A stretch of 35,984 nucleotides of DNA from sequence record PX516787.1. The stretch is one strand, 5' to 3'. The DNA is from a phage. Of the stretch, positions 6,433 through 35,984 are shown in pieces. Position numbers and translations under genes: made by a program. Below the pieces are notes generated by a model that was not told the origin of the DNA, searched no databases, and worked only from the letters and a program-made list of their open reading frames with translations. Each line of letters starts with the position of its first letter. Position 1 is the stretch's first letter.

Positions 6433-6762
6433 ATGAAACTGTCCTCACCTGTTGTAGTAAATAACCGCAAAGTTAAATTTGCATATCTCAAGTCTAATGT
6501 CACCTCAACTGGTGGCGGGACTTATCTCACCCGTGCACTTGCAGTTCGCAACGAAACAGGTGCGGATGTTATCGTTTTCATGCTTCCTCATGGTGAAAAC
6601 ACAATCAAGAACGTCGAACGTATCAAGCGTGGGCGCGAAGATTTAATGTCGGCTGTCAAGCCGCTGATACTGCCATTTAAGATTGTGGTGGTTGTTGGTT
6701 CTACCCAAGCGTATCTTGAAGATTTCTATAAAGATATGGCCTGGAGCGATATTAAATATTAA
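6433..6762 (+). CDS. hypothetical protein
   Basis: 109-aa ORF in the gene-dense + strand context. No recognisable motif. Confidence 0.45.
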   Translation: MKLSSPVVVNNRKVKFAYLKSNVTSTGGGTYLTRALAVRNETGADVIVFMLPHGENTIKNVERIKRGREDLMSAVKPLILPFKIVVVVGSTQAYLEDFYKDMAWSDIKY

Positions 6763-6779
6763 GCGACACGCATAATTAG

Positions 6780-6810
6780 GGAGGCTATCTGGCCTCCTAT
6801 CTTATTCGGA
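6780..6810 (+). terminator. terminator-like hairpin (GGAGGC-TATCTG-GCCTCC followed by TATCTTATT)
   Basis: 6-bp GC stem directly after the stop at 6762, nested within an outer GCGAC...GTCGC inverted repeat (6763-6767 / 6811-6815). The downstream T-tract is imperfect. Confidence 0.35.
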
Positions 6811-6817
6811 GTCGCTT

Positions 6818-7003
6818 ATGCGCACAATACAATGCCCCAACTGCCATTATGAAATTGCAGAAGATGATTTCATAACGCAGCAATGCCCTATCTGTGATTC
6901 ATACATGCCACTAAACCGCCTGTACTTAAAGGCCGATTCTGGTTTAGGCAGCATCATTCGCATCAATCCCGTGCAAACTCAGCCATTAGTGGATTGTGAT
7001 TAA
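6818..7003 (+). CDS. small zinc-ribbon protein
   Basis: 61 aa with CPNCHYE ... CPICDSY (two CxxC pairs). GGAG 6 nt upstream of the ATG. Confidence 0.5.
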   Translation: MRTIQCPNCHYEIAEDDFITQQCPICDSYMPLNRLYLKADSGLGSIIRINPVQTQPLVDCD

Positions 7004-7022
7004 AAACAAAGAGAACGAATCA

Positions 7023-9041
7023 ATGTCAAAGACTGATGACCTCGGACCGGAGTTTAATGATACAGTAGCCTCGTATCTTGCCAAGCACTACGGTGACGTA
7101 TTAAAAGTCTCAAGAGAAAGATTCTGTATTCTATCTTTGCCATTGCTCCGTCGATATATTTCAGAAAATACTGCAATAGTTGACAGCTATGAAGAACAAA
7201 TTCAAGCAGAGTTAGAAGGCCAGGGTCTTGAAAACGATGCTGTATTGCGTTCCGTTTTCAGAGCACAACTTGAGCGTCTTCGCTCTGGCGACAAGAAAGA
7301 CTCGACTGCCTATGCAGATGAGTTGAAGAAAGGTATTCAAGCAGGTGTTACTGACCGTGTTGCAGGTTCCACATTAGAGGAGCCAAACTCGGAGCATGAT
7401 AACACCGACGAACTTGTAGACAAGATTCTGCATGACCCACACAATGTGGACCCAACTGTAATCCCTGCCAAGGTTGCAGAACGTGTTCGCAAAATCTTGA
7501 TGAAAAGTTTCGAAGCCTTTGGTAAATGGCAGTTCCATATTCAGATGGGATTTCCATTTCAAGCACAGGACTTTCACGATGTAATATTCAGTGTTGGTCA
7601 AAAGGTTGTTGATGGCGAGATTGACCGCTTAATAGTGACCATTCCTCCACGACACTCTAAGACTCAGCTCATGAGTATTGCATTGCCCTTGTATTCATTT
7701 TGCCACAATGAATCAAGCCATAACATTATCACTTCGTATGCAGAAGACGTTGTTCTTGAATCGAGTGGTTACATCCGTGCTGTAATGATGGACCCACTGT
7801 TCCAACGCATATTCCCGAAGGTGAGAATCGACCCCAACAAACGTTCTCTTGAACGCTGGGGTACAACCAAAGCTGGAGTTATGCACGCAGTGCCTACTGG
7901 TGGTAAGCTAACTGGTAAAGGTGCTGGACTTCTTGTTGCAAAATACTCCGGCTGTTTCGTGGTGGATGACGTTATCAAGCCGAAAGATGCCTACTCTGAC
8001 ACAGTTCGAGCAGAAATCAACGACCGATTTGATAACACCTTCATGTCACGTCTCGCCAACGATGGTTGCATAACTGATTCGTACGGAAACCAAATTAAGT
8101 GTGCCCGTACACCAATGGTTATCATCATGCAGCGAGTTCATGACCAGGATTTAGTTGGTTATATACTCCGTGGTGGCTCTTCTGATAAATACCATTATCT
8201 CAATATCCCAGCGATTATTGAGAAAGGTGTCGGAAGTGCTGAATGGTATGATAAGTTAATCAAGAAGCAGAACTACACTCATGCTATTCCCATTCTGTAT
8301 AATTTGAACAGGAAGGAAGAGAAGTCTGCATTATGGCCTTCACGTAAGAGCTTAGAATCTCTGGAGGCAATGAAAGAGTCTAACCCATACACATACAATT
8401 CACAGTATGCTGGCGACCCATCTGCACAAGGCCATGGCCTTATCAAAGAAGATTGGTGGCAAGAGTATGAGCCAGACGTTTTCGACAGAAGTCGCATAGT
8501 CAGAAGTTTTATTACAGCGGATACGGCATCAACTGCCAAATCCTATTCTGATTATTCGGTCCTTAAGCATTGGGGCGTGACTAAAGAGCGTGACGTTTAT
8601 TGTTTAGATATTATGCTCGGTAAGTTTGAAACTCCAGAACTCAAGACTGCTATCATCGACTTCTGGAACAAATGCAACAAGTTGGACTTGAAATGCGTAG
8701 GTTGTATTCCTCGTGCATTGTACATGGAAGACAAGTCTGCCGGACAATTCTTGAACCAACAATTTATCAGAGATGGGAGTGTCCGAGTTTTACCATTGCC
8801 TCGTGATGGGATTAATGGTAATGACAAGGTAACTCGATTCCTTAACGCAATCCCATATTTCTCGCAAAAGAGAATATTCTTCCCTGCTGGTCATGAACAC
8901 ATTGACCACGTTAGACGTGAAATACTTGGATTCACTTCTTTGGGTAGTGGTACTGGACACGACGATTGTGTCGATAACGTTTCAGATATGGTTGCAATCG
9001 AATTCTCAGGCCCAAGTGCCAACTACTCCGCATGGATGTAA
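7023..9041 (+). CDS. terminase large subunit, with a long N-terminal extension
   Basis: Walker A-like PPRHSKTQ in the ATPase region; nuclease-domain motifs ITADTAS and GHDDCVDNVSDMVA. The listed ORF starts at GTG 6996; ATG 7023 (MSKTDD...) is preferred. The Walker A lies about 200 aa from the N-terminus. Confidence 0.8.
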   Translation: MSKTDDLGPEFNDTVASYLAKHYGDVLKVSRERFCILSLPLLRRYISENTAIVDSYEEQIQAELEGQGLENDAVLRSVFRAQLERLRSGDKKDSTAYADELKKGIQAGVTDRVAGSTLEEPNSEHDNTDELVDKILHDPHNVDPTVIPAKVAERVRKILMKSFEAFGKWQFHIQMGFPFQAQDFHDVIFSVGQKVVDGEIDRLIVTIPPRHSKTQLMSIALPLYSFCHNESSHNIITSYAEDVVLESSGYIRAVMMDPLFQRIFPKVRIDPNKRSLERWGTTKAGVMHAVPTGGKLTGKGAGLLVAKYSGCFVVDDVIKPKDAYSDTVRAEINDRFDNTFMSRLANDGCITDSYGNQIKCARTPMVIIMQRVHDQDLVGYILRGGSSDKYHYLNIPAIIEKGVGSAEWYDKLIKKQNYTHAIPILYNLNRKEEKSALWPSRKSLESLEAMKESNPYTYNSQYAGDPSAQGHGLIKEDWWQEYEPDVFDRSRIVRSFITADTASTAKSYSDYSVLKHWGVTKERDVYCLDIMLGKFETPELKTAIIDFWNKCNKLDLKCVGCIPRALYMEDKSAGQFLNQQFIRDGSVRVLPLPRDGINGNDKVTRFLNAIPYFSQKRIFFPAGHEHIDHVRREILGFTSLGSGTGHDDCVDNVSDMVAIEFSGPSANYSAWM

Positions 9042-9256
9042 ATATGGCGGTTATCACTCGTTTAGATGCCCGCTCACGCAAGAACAACTCCTTCCAGATT
9101 CAAGATTTGGAAGGAAACATTTTGTGTGTGATTGAGGCAGTTTCTACCACAGAGAGCGACTGTGTTAAGTTAAAGCACGAGTCAAATCTGCGACTCCACA
9201 CCTCCGACAACATTCAAATTGTTAAGGGTAATGGAACTATTCTAAGGAAGAAATAA
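9032..9256 (+). CDS. hypothetical small protein
   Basis: 74-aa ORF overlapping the terminase stop by 10 nt and ending at the portal start. No motif. Confidence 0.35.
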   Translation: MDVNMAVITRLDARSRKNNSFQIQDLEGNILCVIEAVSTTESDCVKLKHESNLRLHTSDNIQIVKGNGTILRKK

Positions 9257-10572
9257 TGACTTCCAAGAAGAAAAACAATCTTTCTGTTAAAGTTGCAGAT
9301 GGGTTAGAAAACCTTGTAACGGGGTTGGGCGGTCAGGCAGATAAGTCCACTTTTAACCAGTGGACTTTCTCAAACAAGAACGCGAACTATCGCGAACTTA
9401 TGAACCGCTTCCGTGAGGATTGGGTTGCACAGAAAGTGTGCACCGTCATTCCTCAAGACATGACGCGCAAGTGGCGACATATTGATAGTGAAGAAGGACG
9501 CAAAGCGGATAAGAAACTTCGTATTCGTAAGCTGTTCCGTGAGGCATATCAATGGGCCAGATTGTATGGTACTTCATTTGTTCTGCTCGACCTGAAAGGT
9601 ACGGGCAAACTTGATACACCATTGCGACTGGATAACTTGAAGACTGGATGTATTAAATCCATGAGAGTTATTGACCGCTCACGCTTATTTGCCGCAGGGA
9701 CTATGGTTCTGGACCCTTTGAGTCCTCACTATGGTTTGCCAGAGTATTATACTTTGGCTGGGTATCCCGGCTATATCCACTACACTCGTTTCCTTCGGTT
9801 CGAGGGTACTGAACTACCGCTGTTCGAATTCCAACGCAACATGTGGTATTCCGATTCGGTACTTATTCCACTGCTGAAAACGATTGACCAATTCTACACA
9901 ACTGCTGCCGCTGCCGCCAGCCTCGCCCAAGAAGCCACCATTGATGTGGTAACTGTCGAAGGCTTACAATCTTTGCTTACATCACCGGAAGGTGAAGCTG
10001 CTGTGATGAAGCGCTTCAAACTTATGAAGCTGGCAAAGAGTATTTATAATGTCTTAATTCTCGACAATACTGAGAAGTATGACACCAAGTCAATTGCACT
10101 ATCTGGTGTGAAAGACTTGATTTGGGAATACTTGAAGATAGTTGCTGCCGCAGTTGGTATTCCGGCTACACGTTTCCTTTCTGCATCTCCAGACGGTATG
10201 AATGCTACGGGCGAATCTGACCTCGTAAACTATATCGACTTGTTGACAGGCTTGCAGACTTCTGTGTTCGACCCTCGTTTAGATGTGGTAGACAAGATTG
10301 TCCAAGCGCACTTTGGCATTGAAGAGTATAGCTACGAATGGCTAGACATCTTCCCTGAATCCAACGTTGAGAAAGCGAAGCGAGCTAAAGATTTGGCATT
10401 TGCTGTTGACCTGCTGGTTAACAACGGTACTATTACTACCGAAGTTGCAAACGAAGTCATGTTCCATTCGGGCGTGTTCGGAACTTGTGACCTTGGCAAG
10501 CCAAATCCTAATCCTCCTAACATCCAAAAGGGTAACGCAAGTGAAGCAAAGCCAAAACCTGGTTCAGCTTAA
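9256..10572 (+). CDS. putative portal protein
   Basis: 438 aa, immediately downstream of the large terminase and upstream of the scaffold and capsid genes. AAGGA 7 nt upstream of the ATG. Call is by position and size. Confidence 0.55.
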   Translation: MTSKKKNNLSVKVADGLENLVTGLGGQADKSTFNQWTFSNKNANYRELMNRFREDWVAQKVCTVIPQDMTRKWRHIDSEEGRKADKKLRIRKLFREAYQWARLYGTSFVLLDLKGTGKLDTPLRLDNLKTGCIKSMRVIDRSRLFAAGTMVLDPLSPHYGLPEYYTLAGYPGYIHYTRFLRFEGTELPLFEFQRNMWYSDSVLIPLLKTIDQFYTTAAAAASLAQEATIDVVTVEGLQSLLTSPEGEAAVMKRFKLMKLAKSIYNVLILDNTEKYDTKSIALSGVKDLIWEYLKIVAAAVGIPATRFLSASPDGMNATGESDLVNYIDLLTGLQTSVFDPRLDVVDKIVQAHFGIEEYSYEWLDIFPESNVEKAKRAKDLAFAVDLLVNNGTITTEVANEVMFHSGVFGTCDLGKPNPNPPNIQKGNASEAKPKPGSA

Positions 10573-31595: not shown

Positions 31596-32150
31596 ATGTT
31601 ATCATTCAAAGTCCTTGCACTTCTGACAGCTTTAGTTCACATCAACGCCCCAGCTTCGGTTGGGGCAGTGAATTCTGCTATTACAGATTTTGCAAGTCAC
31701 TCTTATTTAAATGGAAGTCTGAAACTATCTTCTTCACAACGCAAAGAGCTAGAATGCTACACTAAAGTTATCTGGTATGAAGCTCGCGGAGAAGACAAAC
31801 ATGGAAAGATTCTGGTAGCTAATGTCGTCCGTAATAGAACTAAGTTCGGGAAGCCATTCGCTAACACCGTTTGTGATGTTGTCTATCAACGCAACCAATT
31901 TGCATGGACACGAGAAGCAAAGAAGAAGAATGCTCAATGGAAGCATGTAGCAAAGGTTAATTATGCCACAGAACAACAACAAGTTCTGGACACTATTAAC
32001 GTTGCAATCTCTTTTGTATTATTTAATCAACCCTCTGTCACCAAAGCAACCCACTTTTGTACAGCATCGGAGAAGTGCAACTTCAAGAATGTTAAAGGTT
32101 TGGGACGTTATGGTGGCCATAAATTCTATGAGTATCTAGGAAATCTGTAA
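31596..32150 (+). CDS. endolysin, SleB-type cell wall hydrolase with N-terminal signal peptide / signal-anchor
   Basis: N-terminus [24 protein letters not shown] looks like a signal peptide; [22 protein letters not shown] ... [11 protein letters not shown] matches the SleB (Hydrolase_2) core. AAGGA 5 nt upstream of the ATG. Confidence 0.8.
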
Positions 32151-33250
32151 TGGCTTACACTACCTTTTCACAAACCAAGAATAACCAACTATTAGAGCCA
32201 ATGTTCTTTGGTCAGAACGTTAACGTTGCTCGATATGACCAACAGAAGTACAGCATCTTCGAGAAGTTAATCGAGAAGCAGTTATCTTTCTTTTGGCGAC
32301 CTGAGGAGGTTGATGTTAGCCAGGACCGAATTGACTATGCTGGTCTGCCTGAATGCGAGAAGCACATCTTCACAAGCAATTTACGATACCAAATCCTGCT
32401 TGATTCCATTCAGGGACGTGGACCAACTACAGTTTTGCTGCCAATTGTGAGCATTCCTGAGCTGGAAACTTGGATTGAAACTTGGTCATTCTCAGAGACA
32501 ATTCACTCTCGTTCTTACACGCATATTATTCGTAATATCGTGACAGACCCTAGCGTAATTTTCGATGAAATTGTGGAGAATGAGCACATCAAAATGCGTG
32601 CAATCGGCATCTCCCAATATTATGACGAGCTTCAACATCTGACTTCCATGTGGCATCTGCATGAAGATAAAGTTTCTCTTCGTGAGCTTAAGAAGAAGCT
32701 ATATTTATGCCTCATGTCCATCAATGCACTGGAAGCAATCCGCTTCTATGTTAGCTTTGCTTGCTCATTTGCCTTCGCTGAACGTAAGTTAATGGAAGGA
32801 AATGCCAAGATTATTCGCTTAATTGCTCGTGATGAAGCACTCCATTTGACCGGAACTCAACACATGCTGAACCTTCTTGCAAGCGGTGTTGATGACCCAG
32901 AAATGGCAGAAATTGCTAAAGAATGCCGTCAAGAATGCCAACTCATGTTCGAAAATGTGGCCCAACAAGAGAAGGATTGGGCTGATTATTTGTTCAAAGA
33001 TGGCTCAATGATTGGCTTAAACAAGCAAATTCTATGCGGATATGTGGAATATATCACGAATATTCGTATGCAAGCAGTTGGATTGGATGCTCCATTCAAA
33101 GGTGCTACTAACCCGATTCCTTGGATTAACGCATGGTTGAATTCGGATGCTGTACAAGTTGCTCCACAGGAAACGGAGATTAGTTCGTACCTTGTCGGGC
33201 AGATTGACTCCGAAGTGGATACCAATGCCCTGGGCGGATTTGAGCTGTAA
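32150..33250 (+). CDS. nrdB: ribonucleotide reductase class Ia beta subunit
   Basis: Full-length (366 aa), with the di-iron ligand regions ([39 protein letters not shown]). From memory it is near-collinear with enterobacterial NrdB, apart from an apparent internal deletion of about 10 aa near [13 protein letters not shown]. Confidence 0.95.
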
Positions 33251-33398
33251 CGATTATATGTGAGAAGAGATTCGATGCGTTAGCGTCGTTTCTCTTTGAG
33301 CTAGGATAAAACAAGTAAATTAAATATCTATTTATTCCCAATATTGCTACAATATTAAGAGTAATATTAGGAATGCGTAAAGTTAAAACCAAATGATA

Positions 33399-33471
33399 CA
33401 TGGTCGGTCAACTGTACCTGGATAGAAATTCGTTCATGGTCGGTCAGCTGTATCTAGACGAAATTTGTTCG
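33399..33471 (+). repeat. tandem direct repeat, two copies of about 36 nt (CATGGTCGGTCARCTGTAYCT...)
   Basis: Copy 1 at 33399-33434 and copy 2 at 33435-33471, roughly 80% identical, read directly from the sequence. Confidence 0.7.
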
Positions 33472-33493
33472 AATGGAAAACCGACTATTAATA

Positions 33494-33518
33494 TTTTTTT
33501 TTTATAATTTTTTTTTTT
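33494..33518 (+). repeat. two homopolymeric T tracts (10 and 11 T) separated by ATAA
   Basis: T10 at 33494-33503 and T11 at 33508-33518, within an AT-rich segment flanked by AATATT palindromes. Confidence 0.8.
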
Positions 33519-33544
33519 AATTTAAATATTGCTACAGAATTAAT

Positions 33545-33607
33545 GAGACTAGAATTCGTAACAAGCTACGAGACTAGAATTGTTTCAATATTAACGAGAC
33601 TAGAATT
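33545..33607 (+). repeat. three phased direct repeats GAGACTAGAATT (iteron-like or tandem promoter-like array)
   Basis: Exact 12-mers at 33545-33556, 33570-33581 and 33596-33607, spaced 25 and 26 bp apart, each followed by a CAATATT-type element. Confidence 0.8.
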
Positions 33608-33837
33608 GTGGCAATATTATAATTTTTATTTTTGGGCCAACGGGGAGGGGAAGCCCAACGTCCTATCGGACTTAAATACGGTCCCTACTCCAACTTTTTC
33701 CTACAGCCTATCGGCTTTCAAACAACACCAAGTTAGGCGCTTCGCTTATGGGTCAAGGTCAAAGTCTCCGTGCTGTTGTAACAATGGCACAGGTTTGTGA
33801 TATTAGTTGGAAGTGAATTGTGTAATGGCTACGCTAT

Positions 33838-33843
33838 TATAAT
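33838..33843 (+). promoter_or_regulatory. candidate host sigma70 -10 element (TATAAT) upstream of the RNAP gene
   Basis: Perfect TATAAT about 40 nt upstream of the RNAP start codon. No convincing -35 hexamer at 17 +/- 1 bp (TTGTGA at 33794-33799 is too far). Confidence 0.25.
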
Positions 33844-33883
33844 CCGTTTCAGTTAAATCATACACAATCTTGGAGACTTACAA

Positions 33884-35824
33884 ATGACTACTATCACCAC
33901 TCAAACTATCAAATCCGTTGTTCCTGCTATCACTGCTCTGGTATATCGTGCCAAAGAGAAACAGAACTATATGCAGCCTCAGACTTGTGCTATTGCTGCC
34001 TTAGCCATATTCAAGATGATGACGTCTTTCACTCGTGATGACGTTGTTCCTGCCATTGCGATGGTTGAGCTGGCTTCTGCTTCTATTGCTGATGCCAACC
34101 GCTACAACAACGATTTGAAAGCAATGCACTATGTTGACCCAGCTATCAACCTCATTGGTCTGGCTAAACACTTTGGCTTCATCACCATGAACGAAGATAA
34201 GTCATTCCAACAAACTGACACATGGGTTGAACTGGTTACAACCAAAGACACAGCAGTGCCATTCACTGAGCGTGTTACATCTGAATCTCGTCGCAAGCCT
34301 TTCGTTAAAGGTGGCAAAGTTAAGCCATCCAAGACTCTGAAAGCTGCAATCGAATTCCTGCAAGATACTGAGTACCATGTGGAGACTGAGATGGTTCGCA
34401 TCATTCAGTCCATGCTTGAGCAACGTACTTATGGTGGCTTGCAGATGCCAGAAGCAATCCAGACTGAACTCCATGTTTGGAACAATGCTGTAGCAATGAT
34501 GAATCAGGACACACTGTATTCTGACTACTTTGCTGATAACCGTGGCCGTCTGTATCATGTAGCATGTGCTGGCCCTAACCCACAATCCTCTGACTTTGCT
34601 CGTTGCTTGTATTCTCACAATGTTGAGAACATCGTTAAGAAGTTTAACGAAGATGGTTCTACTACCATTGCATACAACATGTTCATGGCAGAGCTGGAAG
34701 ATATTTCTGGTGGTGAATGGTGCAGTGCTAAACGTTTAACTTATGTTGCTCAGAATCCGGCTGGTTCACTTGCTCGCATGATGAACATGCCTAAAGCTGA
34801 ACGTCCTTCCAAGCCATTCACTTATGTTCGTCTGGCTCTGGATTGGTTCAAGTTTGAGACTATAGGTGAATGCGATTCTCGTGTAGGCTTTGGCTTAGAT
34901 GCTAAATGTTCTGGTACTCAATATCTGGCATTCATTGCTGGTAACATGGAAATGGCTCGTGCTACAGGTCTGGTTGATTCTGAGACTAAAGCATCTGACC
35001 CATACCAGTTGAGTCTCCGTGAACTGTTGAAGCTGCTGGACAAGTCTTCAATGAAGCCATCTCCTGAAATCATGGACGAATTCTTGAATCCGAAATCTGG
35101 TCGTAAGTTTATCAAAACTCCGTACATGGCTATTCAATATGGTGGTGGTAAAGCTGCATTAACTGGTTCATCTGACTTTATCTCCTACATGACAGAAGCT
35201 CTCCAGATTCCTATGGAGAAAGCTGAGGCATTTGCTGAACTGTGTGTAGAAGCAATCCATAACGCATTGGGTGCTAAGATTAACATGTTCATTGAGAAAG
35301 CTGCTGAGGCTGCATACAACCGTTGTGTTGAACTTGGCAAAGAGTACATCACATACCGTCACACTGATGGTCAGGTTGTAATGAAGCCTTGCTTCCCATC
35401 TCGTGAAATCTGTGAGGCATTCAGCATTCGTGTTGACAGCCAAACTCGTGTCATCTTTGGTCAGATTCAGGAGAATAAGCCTTGGACCATTCGTGAATCC
35501 AACCCAACTAAAGAAGAATTCAAGCGTACTTTCGTTGTTAACTACATTCAAGGTATTGATGCACTGGTTGCTCGTACTGTTGCAGTTAAAGCTAAAGAAG
35601 CTGGTCTTCGTGGCTTTACTTCAATCCATGATTGTTTCCGTTGCTGTCTGGCAGATGCTCCACGTATGATGGAAGTTATTCGTGCAGCATATGTTGAAAT
35701 CTTTGTAACCAACAATCAATTCGAGAATCTGTCTAAGCAACTTGGTGGCATTCAGATGTATCATGAGAACATCGTAACCGAAGAGCTTCTGATGAGCGAA
35801 CACGCTTACTACTTCTGTCAATAA
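33884..35824 (+). CDS. single-subunit DNA-dependent RNA polymerase (T7-family), compact (646 aa)
   Basis: GLDAKCSGTQYLAF matches T7 motif A (DGSCSGIQHF); RKFIKTPYMAIQYGGG matches motif B (RSVTKRSVMTLAYGSK); FTSIHDCFRC matches motif C (IHDSFG). GGAG 7 nt upstream of the ATG. Confidence 0.85.
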   Translation: MTTITTQTIKSVVPAITALVYRAKEKQNYMQPQTCAIAALAIFKMMTSFTRDDVVPAIAMVELASASIADANRYNNDLKAMHYVDPAINLIGLAKHFGFITMNEDKSFQQTDTWVELVTTKDTAVPFTERVTSESRRKPFVKGGKVKPSKTLKAAIEFLQDTEYHVETEMVRIIQSMLEQRTYGGLQMPEAIQTELHVWNNAVAMMNQDTLYSDYFADNRGRLYHVACAGPNPQSSDFARCLYSHNVENIVKKFNEDGSTTIAYNMFMAELEDISGGEWCSAKRLTYVAQNPAGSLARMMNMPKAERPSKPFTYVRLALDWFKFETIGECDSRVGFGLDAKCSGTQYLAFIAGNMEMARATGLVDSETKASDPYQLSLRELLKLLDKSSMKPSPEIMDEFLNPKSGRKFIKTPYMAIQYGGGKAALTGSSDFISYMTEALQIPMEKAEAFAELCVEAIHNALGAKINMFIEKAAEAAYNRCVELGKEYITYRHTDGQVVMKPCFPSREICEAFSIRVDSQTRVIFGQIQENKPWTIRESNPTKEEFKRTFVVNYIQGIDALVARTVAVKAKEAGLRGFTSIHDCFRCCLADAPRMMEVIRAAYVEIFVTNNQFENLSKQLGGIQMYHENIVTEELLMSEHAYYFCQ

Positions 35825-35888
35825 CAACTAAGCGCCAAGGATGGCATTAGTTGCATGTGAATCTAATAACCAATTTGGAGACTTTATA

Positions 35889-35984
35889 ATGTTTACAGTG
35901 ACCTTAGTAACCTATTACGGCAAGCAAGTTTGTGAGAAGTTTGAGACTTTAGAAGAAGCGAGAGCTTTTGCAGCTCGTGAAGAG
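35889..35984 (+). CDS. hypothetical protein, 3'-truncated by the window edge
   Basis: ATG at 35889 preceded by TTGGAGACTT, the same motif that precedes the RNAP start. The frame is open to the end of the window (MFTVTLVTYYGKQVCEKFETLEEARAFAAREE...). Confidence 0.4.
   Translation, partial: MFTVTLVTYYGKQVCEKFETLEEARAFAAREE

Follow-up and report, generated by a model that had tools for sequence, protein, structure and literature searches.

The concatemer junction and left-end control region of T7 and T3 hold a terminal repeat with short repeat arrays at its sides, the host promoters A0–A3, phiOL/phiOR, pac elements and a polymerase pause site, lambda cos comprises the nick site cosN and cosB with its R-site array and bend site, and SPP1 pac is laid out as pacL-pacC-pacR. 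To our knowledge, the end-recognition sequences of T5, SPO1 and N4 are poorly defined. The nearest precedent is the junction of T3 and T7, which has a terminal repeat flanked by host and phage promoters and at which the polymerase pauses to start packaging (PMC3276506), and direct terminal repeats (DTRs) can be formed by extension from nicks staggered at fixed positions (PMC5557969). Members of the Chaseviridae package linear DNA with long DTRs (PMC12842549; PMC8762354; PMC6753284; PMC9699118; PMC6872899), the length of which ranges from 2.6 to 3.2 kb in the family. The subject of this study is a noncoding gap of 633 bp at positions 33251–33883 of phage sequence record PX516787.1, which was analysed over its whole length of 35,984 nucleotides (the window). 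Comparison with related genomes suggests, with a probability of about 0.65, that the gap holds the left end of the linear chromosome of the phage, along with the control region of the concatemer junction.

The gap separates the stop codon of nrdB (open reading frame (ORF) 32150–33250) from the ATG, at 33884, of a gene for a 646-aa single-subunit RNA polymerase (RNAP; 33884–35824) that matches PF00940. The ORF list and the PF00940 match are in agreement with the preliminary description of this DNA, which was made from its letters alone and had noted a noncoding gap between nrdB and the RNAP gene. GC content in the gap is 0.354, compared with approximately 0.41–0.58 elsewhere in the window (400-bp bins). 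Over the 1.2 kb around the gap, phages of Escherichia, Yersinia and Shigella that belong to the phiEcoM-GJ1 (hereafter GJ1) group share 87–97% identity with the window, and judging by this similarity the source of the window is a GJ1-like myovirus of the Chaseviridae, Cleopatravirinae, Carltongylesvirus. The records of GJ1, ST32, DE15 and SA91KD open exactly at window 33251–33254, so that the gap is the genome “start” by convention.

Evidence for a physical end within the gap comes from the record ends of relatives, which were aligned to the window. Both DTR copies are present and identical in the records of Y2 (2608 bp), PM1 (2665 bp) and JL1 (2995 bp), and a PhageTerm repeat_region is annotated in Mangalitsa, 4HA13 and Myduc, with the repeats of Mangalitsa and 4HA13 starting at record base 1. 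With a slash marking the end, the left ends of Y2 and PM1 (...CCTRTCG/G...) correspond to window 33669, that of JL1 (...CCTAT/CGGAC) to 33667, those of Mangalitsa and 4HA13 (...CCTATCGGAC/TT) to 33672, and that of Myduc, which belongs to another genus (...CTCCCTAT/CGGGAG), to 33667. The left ends of these six relatives align within 5 nt of each other, in the 3' half of a small palindrome, GTCC-TATC-GGAC, designated HP1. It is because these ends fall inside HP1 that the gap is read as a concatemer junction, and from homology to the six phages we infer an end at 33667–33672 in the window phage. The 5-nt spread may reflect differences in method or a staggered cut; end-repair during library preparation fills 5' overhangs and trims 3' overhangs (PMC5557969).

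The DNA at this position is the most conserved in the gap. The segment 33640–33765 is almost invariant in 15 close relatives, and the DNA leftward of it has unit deletions, duplications and small insertions. Matches to the core at 72–82% identity were returned by blastn from phages of Erwinia, Pectobacterium and Aeromonas, a Dickeya phage giving another match, and an alignment of 14 diverse sequences contains the invariant blocks CCT.TCGG, AATACGGTCCCT and much of AGCCTATCGGCT. The pairing of HP1 is kept in 14/14 of these sequences, two of its four pairs having changed on both sides: the E. coli and Y2 types have the arms GTCC/GGAC, PM1 and Myduc have CTCCC/GGGAG, and Faunus and phiA050 have ATCCC/GGGAT. 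Symmetric recognition by a protein is at least as likely an explanation of this covariation as extrusion of the palindrome. A second palindrome of the same design, HP2 (AGCC-TATC-GGCT), is paired in 90.6% of cases, its sequence being conserved without covariation. The 12-mer AATACGGTCCCT is unique in GJ1 (positions 1–50000). A motif scan of IMG/VR returned 38 loci, of which approximately 14 are true homologues, the remainder being chance or unrelated coding matches.

The preliminary description had drawn attention to a duplicated CCTATCGG and to a GC hairpin, TTGGGC-15 nt-GCCCAA. The duplication is present, with copies at 33662 and 33707 where 0.28 would be expected; the second coordinate had been given as 33698, approximately 9 nt off. 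The sequence of the GC hairpin is also present at 33632–33658, but as a structure it was rejected, with only 65.5% of cells paired in the 14 sequences and a DNA fold no better than shuffles (z −0.17). It is a small palindrome built on CCTATCGG, and not the GC hairpin, that is conserved and covaries.

The Proteus phage Myduc keeps HP1 as CTCCC-TATC-GGGAG, as well as HP2, GGCTACGC and the phage-promoter motif described below. It is without AATACGGTCCCT and without the palindrome termed box A here, and its upstream repeats differ, consisting of AAGTCGTAAG units. As its arrays differ whilst the cut site is kept, the flanking arrays may co-evolve with the proteins that bind them.

Box A emerged from the AATATT palindromes, at least six of which had been noticed previously. 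There are seven in the gap (33340, 33351, 33363, 33490, 33525, 33587 and 33613), where shuffling the region predicts 0.7, and 15 further copies in the other 35 kb of the window. They resolve into a 17-bp palindrome, AATATTG-N3-CAATATT, of which the copy at 33340 is perfect (box A-1) and, from its symmetry, a candidate operator-type site for a dimeric protein. Copies with two mismatches lie at 33525, 33576 and 33602, and four of the eight matches in the window fall within the 633-bp gap. Y2, PM1, Mangalitsa, 4HA13 and JL1 each have a palindrome of this form, varying in the central 3 nt, 150–404 bp upstream of their terminus, and a motif scan added Faunus, IMG21 and Fougasse.

Sites of this kind are also found near the other edge of the repeat. 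The right DTR boundaries of relatives (2608 in Y2, 2665 in PM1, 3234, 3120, and that of JL1) lie in homologous noncoding DNA, and box A with 0–1 mismatches is centred 53–81 bp outside the right boundary in Y2, PM1, Mangalitsa, 4HA13 and JL1. At the left boundary, a box-A-like or half site is centred 54–62 bp outside in the window, JL1 and 4HA13. These occurrences are suggestive, but they do not amount to independent evidence, since the sequences are homologous. A tentative and, in our judgement, unlikely extension of the junction reading is that box A brackets both DTR edges, with a dimeric binder marking the edges and positioning a nuclease at the covarying xxCC-TATC-GGxx. If true, this would be a signal not described for any long-DTR phage, and the long-open question of how such phages define their ends would become testable in an E. 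coli phage. The right boundaries of the relatives are also close to a TC(G/C)G(A/G)-like sequence, recalling the TCGGA at the left cut.

Several observations weigh against placing a genome end and its control region in the gap. The end position is derived from homology, the ends mapped in different phages and by different methods lie up to 5 nt apart, and 4HA13 was oriented on Mangalitsa (PMC9699118), so that its end is not fully independent. The right DTR boundary lies past the window, of which 2318 nt remain after 33667. As DNA hairpins, HP1 and HP2 have little stability (−2.3 and −2.8 kcal/mol), which makes a cruciform or hairpin mechanism doubtful. Box A is also found inside the repeat, further downstream, and once in a tail-fibre gene of GJ1, a distribution that would suit an operator of transcription no less than a signal for packaging. 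Sigma-70-like sites number 3 in the gap, against 4.3 +/- 1.6 in shuffles, and no small terminase subunit was identified, the ORFs that precede the large terminase gene matching only PHROGs of unknown function.

The published repeat of PYps23T (MW147598) also disagrees, as it is 2339 bp long and starts approximately 140 nt rightward, at window 33812 (PMC8762354). Each boundary of this repeat cuts a copy of the phage-promoter motif, and does so at the same point (ATTAGTTGGA/NGTGAA), as though two repeated motifs had been joined to each other. The boundary may be an artefact of recombination or of a PCR jump, or a different kind of end. As both boundaries are in promoter-motif copies and six phages agree on HP1, 33812 was set aside as a true end.

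According to the junction reading, the gap would join the last late gene, nrdB, to a DTR opening with the RNAP gene, in a concatemer or in a circular assembly such as the window. The order of elements would be terminator, right-arm array, host-type promoter, cut-site palindrome, leader with phage-type promoter, and RNAP gene. The left physical end would be made inside GTCC-TATC-GGAC, at 33667–33672; the DNA to the right of the cut, including the leader, the RNAP gene and beyond, would be present in two copies per virion, and that to the left (33298–33659) would form the tip of the unique right arm. The large terminase subunit, TerL, would be brought to the junction by proteins on the box A palindromes, the TGGTCGGTCAACTGTACC boxes and the bendable T-tracts, and, as the packaging nuclease, it would nick in or next to the palindrome and then again approximately 3 kb downstream. 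The repeat would then be duplicated through extension synthesis from the staggered nicks, and the phage-type promoter inside it would give the RNAP positive feedback. Putative components of this scheme are the cutting nuclease, the proteins on box A and on the TGGTCGGTCAACTGTACC repeat (box G), and activity of the two promoters. The features concerned are listed in Table 1.

Table 1. Features of the gap between nrdB and the RNAP gene (window coordinates; a point in the strand column means that no strand is assigned)
Feature	Position	Strand	Remarks
Terminator-like hairpin after nrdB	33264..33297	+	13-bp interrupted stem, T-rich 3' side
Box A-1, perfect palindrome AATATTG-CTA-CAATATT	33340..33356	.	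0 mismatches
36-nt tandem repeat with box G cores TGGTCGGTCAACTGTACC (33401-33418) and TGGTCGGTCAGCTGTATC (33437-33454)	33399..33470	+	
T10-ATAA-T11 tract, A/T-only, easily bent or unwound	33494..33518	.	Length varies among relatives
Array of 25/26-bp units, each degenerate box A plus AACGAGACT	33525..33619	+	Contains three GAGACTAGAATT
Sigma-70-like promoter: -35 TTAACG (33591-96), 18-nt spacer, -10 TATTAT (33615-20)	33591..33623	+	
G-rich element with TTGGGC...GCCCAA inverted repeat	33632..33658	+	Sequence partly kept (GGAG, GCCCAA), pairing not
HP1, palindrome GTCC-TATC-GGAC	33660..33671	.	Inferred left-end (DTR left boundary) site
AATACGGTCCCT 12-mer	33675..33686	+	Invariant in 14 aligned Cleopatravirinae, 4-9 nt inside genome end
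HP2, palindrome AGCC-TATC-GGCT, HP1 design	33705..33716	.	45 nt inside end
GTCAAGGTCAA, conserved direct-repeat leader element	33752..33762	+	
GJ1-type phage (single-subunit RNAP) promoter motif TGATATTAGTTGGAAGTGAA, predicted	33798..33817	+	67 nt upstream of RNAP ATG
Leader elements GGCTACGC (33827-34) and TAATCCGTTTCA (33840-51)	33827..33851	+	
Shine-Dalgarno GGAG (33872-75) and RNAP ATG (33884)	33872..33886	+	RNAP = first terminal-repeat gene

On the packaging side, the TerL gene (6996–9041, 681 aa) matches Terminase_6C and a PHROG large terminase family, and the portal gene is at 9256–10572. Ahead of TerL, at window 6433–7003, there are two ORFs, one of 109 aa and the other, zinc-ribbon-like, of 61 aa, and these two are candidate DNA-recognition partners. 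HNH-assisted cutting was also considered and rejected, as an HNH gene adjoins TerL in GJ1 but there is none in that place in the window; HNH is therefore not a conserved packaging component.

The first element of the gap is the hairpin that follows nrdB, as the preliminary description had proposed and a scan and folding of 33264–33297 support. Its RNA fold has an energy of −22.5 kcal/mol (z −4.2), it is nearly invariant in 15 close relatives, and it looks like an intrinsic terminator closing the nrdB (late) transcription unit.

The repeats that follow are largely as described before. The tandem 36-nt repeat is present in two copies with an 83% match, and its core, box G, has two matches in the window against 0.02 expected, with a partial inverted copy, ACCGAC, at 33480–33485. 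The two homopolymer tracts were found as T10 at 33494–33503 and T11 at 33508–33518, and the three phased repeats as exact copies of GAGACTAGAATT at 33545, 33570 and 33596, spaced by 25 and 26 nt. This 26-nt repeat is made up of a degenerate box A (AGAATTG-N3-CAATATT) and AACGAGACT, the box A copies in the array being AATATTG-CTA-CAGAATT (33525–33541), AGAATTG-TTT-CAATATT (33576–33592) and AGAATTG-TGG-CAATATT (33602–33618). The search for further copies that had been proposed along with these claims returned none outside the gap in the 36-kb window, either of the 36-nt repeat or of GAGACTAGAATT, and neither was found elsewhere in the first 50 kb of GJ1.

Across genera, box A and box G recur upstream of the terminus in similar places, and in GJ1 both are almost confined to the noncoding DNA around the terminal repeat. 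One or two copies of box G are present in Mangalitsa, 4HA13, IMG21, Y2, Fougasse, PM1 and phiA050, and one in TH37; in the Aeromonas phage phiA050 it is again duplicated at a distance of 36 nt. Units related to the 25/26-bp array occur in Faunus, phiA050 and PM1. Among close relatives the 36-nt unit varies from 1 to 2 copies and the 26-nt unit from approximately 2 to 4.

Further variation between relatives was observed in this region. One unit of the 26-nt array is missing in flopper, PYps23T and one IMG/VR contig, and EcoM1, MLP1 and Bp10 have duplicated a module of -10, T-tract and G-rich sequence just upstream of the terminus motif. On the alignments, window 33590–33650 is a hotspot of unit gain and loss. 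Hairpin-like insertions of 18 bp are present beside box G (window 33451 and 33473), with TATCTCCTTCGGAGAAGT in JL1 and Bp10 and AACCCGTTACGAAGTAAC in EcoM1 and Pel53. Pel53 (PP952070), labelled a Staphylococcus phage with the host Staphylococcus hyicus, is approximately 89% identical across nrdB, the gap and the RNAP gene; from its sequence it resembles enterobacterial Chaseviridae, and the host label looks doubtful.

Two predicted promoters precede the RNAP gene, at 33591–33620 and 33798–33817, in keeping with the expectation of promoter-like elements upstream of the polymerase gene. The perfect TATAAT that had been singled out is present three times (33503, 33618 and 33838), and the copy in the leader (33838–43) is not conserved. 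The sigma-70-like site has 9/12 hexamer matches, and its -10 overlaps the TATAAT at 33618–23, after which there is a T-rich stretch. It is orthologous to the “putative host sigma70 promoter” annotated in GJ1 (EF460875) at 364–393. In 9 of the 14 diverse relatives a -10-like hexamer ends 40–46 nt before the terminus motif, when the two best-scoring sites of each are considered. This predicted promoter is outside the repeat and would consequently be found, in virion DNA, upstream of the right-hand RNAP copy only. A sigma-70 promoter within the leader was rejected, as the best site, TTGGAA-17-TACGCT, was no better than 28% of shuffles and the last base of its -10 is not conserved.

The second predicted promoter, TGATATTAGTTGGAAGTGAA, fits the 20-nt consensus of nine phage promoters annotated in GJ1, with 0 mismatches to the core. 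The motif has seven matches in the window against 0.77 expected, six of which are on the + strand. At 33798–33817 it is kept in 15/15 close relatives and in 10/14 diverse relatives, being degenerate or displaced in the rest; the copy upstream of the RNAP gene is unannotated in GJ1. Another copy, ATTAGTTGCATGTGAA, is present at 35846–35861, 22 nt past the RNAP stop and before a small gene (ATG at 35890). No Chaseviridae promoters have been identified experimentally so far, according to the family's ICTV profile (PMC12842549), and the paper on ST32 does not discuss ends or promoters.

These promoters allow for a different explanation, in which the gap is purely a hub of transcription control, with box A serving as operators for a phage regulator of early host-RNAP promoters and the proximity to the genome end being incidental. 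This is possible, though on balance we doubt it. Box A is a classic 7-N3-7 palindrome, and five of the six GJ1 sites (≤1 mismatch) are in the two noncoding regions on either side of the RNAP gene, where they precede early genes. Both the third GAGACTAGAATT and the box A copy at 33602–33618 are overlapped by the annotated sigma-70 promoter, and many more box A copies are found 190–310 bp beyond the right boundary, before early genes. However, manual inspection showed no convincing -35/-10 pair at a constant spacing from any box A, and box A as a -35 element in its own right was rejected likewise, there being no -10 at a consistent distance. A transcriptional role also leaves unexplained why the most conserved DNA is the end palindrome and the 12-mer just inside it, and Myduc keeps HP1 and the end position yet has lost box A.

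A replication origin was the favoured reading of the preliminary description, with a regulatory array as its alternative. Of this, the noncoding and regulatory character of the DNA was upheld, but there is no positive support for an origin beyond the repeats and the AT-rich DNA. The 36-nt and 26-nt repeats would be iterons and the T10/T11 tract an unwinding element, or replication would begin from a promoter, as at T7, in which secondary origins are situated at the promoters phiOL and phiOR near both sides of the concatemer junction, and T7-type replisomes start from RNAP transcripts. The direct repeats do adjoin a pure A/T tract (33494–33518) in DNA of low GC content, as the tandem direct repeats of iteron origins (lambda ori and plasmid oriV) do, the elements are conserved across genera, a promoter-like site is present in the gap, and GJ1 annotates a helicase/primase and a DNA polymerase. 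In contrast to iteron origins, the repeats here number only 2–3 and their copy number varies freely among close relatives; they have periods of 26 and 36 bp, of which the 26-bp period sets successive sites on opposite faces of the helix. No DnaA boxes (TTATCCACA, ≤1 mismatch) were found in 33251–33883, and no initiator gene was recognised, the flanking genes being nrdB and RNAP. Cumulative GC skew, which had been suggested as a check, rises monotonically through the window with no inflection at the gap, a weak test because all genes are on one strand. As the repeats are equally compatible with packaging or operator sites, an origin is a minority possibility and an unlikely one, but it is compatible with a concatemer junction.

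The conserved core, 33630–33884, might instead act as RNA, as a structured 5' leader of the RNAP mRNA for processing or translational control, with HP1 and HP2 as hairpins. The leader between the cut site and the RNAP gene is 212 bp long and conserved; GGCTACGC, for example, is kept in 12/14 sequences and in Myduc, being replaced by AGCTACGC in Y2 and Fougasse. It folds better than shuffles (z −2.9), HP1 covaries, and there is a promoter-like site approximately 40 nt upstream. In a single-sequence fold, an arm at 33762–33780 can pair with the RNAP ribosome-binding site at 33861–33879, but this sequestering stem is not conserved in Mangalitsa-type relatives and was rejected, as was a long-range pairing of G-rich and C-rich segments (33642–51 with 33683–92) from a single-sequence fold, which RNAalifold did not recover. 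RNAalifold found only 11 pairs with a weak covariation term (−0.64). No Rfam family matched the gap at the gathering score, a permissive E-value giving only a chance-level snoRNA match (E = 8.4), and scans of the gap for tRNA and tmRNA gave no match. Loops and flanks are invariant in sequence, which points to recognition by a protein, and with the DNA end midway in the supposed RNA, the left-hand gene copy could not make it. A leader RNA is therefore improbable.

At the end of the leader, 174 bp have been inserted in Mangalitsa-type relatives (between window 33869 and 33884), and the insertion keeps the frame of the RNAP ATG. The ribosome-binding site TTGGAGAC is duplicated in it, and the records annotate a 704-aa RNAP; the insertion is either an N-terminal extension of the RNAP or a separate gene of approximately 57 aa.

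Two ORFs are open within the gap. That of 85 aa (33543–33800), which had already been considered unlikely to be real, is open in the window phage only: in 14/14 aligned relatives there is a stop by codon 9–34, the alignment is full of frameshifting indels, and the inferred genome end falls within it. The ORF of 35 aa (33400–33507, with MVGQLYLD twice) is open from the same ATG in 15/15 close relatives, with indels of 18, 18 and 36 nt. Its variable columns are distributed 10:10:12 by codon position, giving no sign of selection at the protein level, and a Shine-Dalgarno sequence is absent. What is invariant in it corresponds to the box G repeats, of which the ORF is, on this alignment, probably a by-product. 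That either encodes a small protein is very improbable on these grounds, despite the small coding sequences (hypothetical proteins) annotated here in flopper, Ecp_YSF, 2KOFFS, Mangalitsa and PYps23T.

The gap is therefore best placed with a known kind of element, a DTR junction with an early control region, and repeats have already been documented in the family. What may be new is the conserved, covarying cut-site signature and the architecture of box A and box G, no description of which was found in the accessible papers. Chaseviridae records use arbitrary or conventional starts, and many, like the window, run across the junction. The signature GTCC-TATC-GGAC / AATACGGTCCCT shows where virion DNA probably has its true left end, and allows for correct orientation of genomes, annotation of the repeat and removal of spurious small ORFs. 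The cut-site palindrome, box A, box G and the two promoter candidates are conserved elements that can be mutated. They offer handles on a T7-like transcription strategy combined with a kilobase DTR that duplicates the RNAP gene, and on how long DTRs are cut, which is poorly understood for the phages that have them.

Compared with lambda cos and SPP1 pac, the analogy is that of a short symmetric cut site, with an array of repeated binding sites and bendable A/T DNA, at a distance of up to a few hundred bp, positioning the terminase. No cohesive ends or headful series would be expected here, however, two cuts approximately 3 kb apart are needed, and there is no homology. T5, SPO1 and N4 share with this phage exact terminal repeats on the kilobase scale, which contain early genes, and fixed ends (PMC5557969), but they are unrelated phages and the Chaseviridae repeat is shorter. 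The T7/T3 junction differs in the size of its repeat, 160–230 bp as opposed to approximately 3 kb with the RNAP gene inside, and there is no similarity in sequence between the T7 junction and the gap. The predicted host promoter is outside the repeat here, neither a small terminase subunit nor a pause signal was identified, and the TerL of the window phage, a myovirus, belongs to another lineage, T1-like according to PMC8762354. The likeness is instead one of organization, as both have a linear genome with an exact DTR and fixed-sequence ends, all genes lying on one strand, a single-subunit RNAP encoded close to the left end, noncoding DNA rich in repeats on either side of the DTR, and adjoining host and phage promoters.

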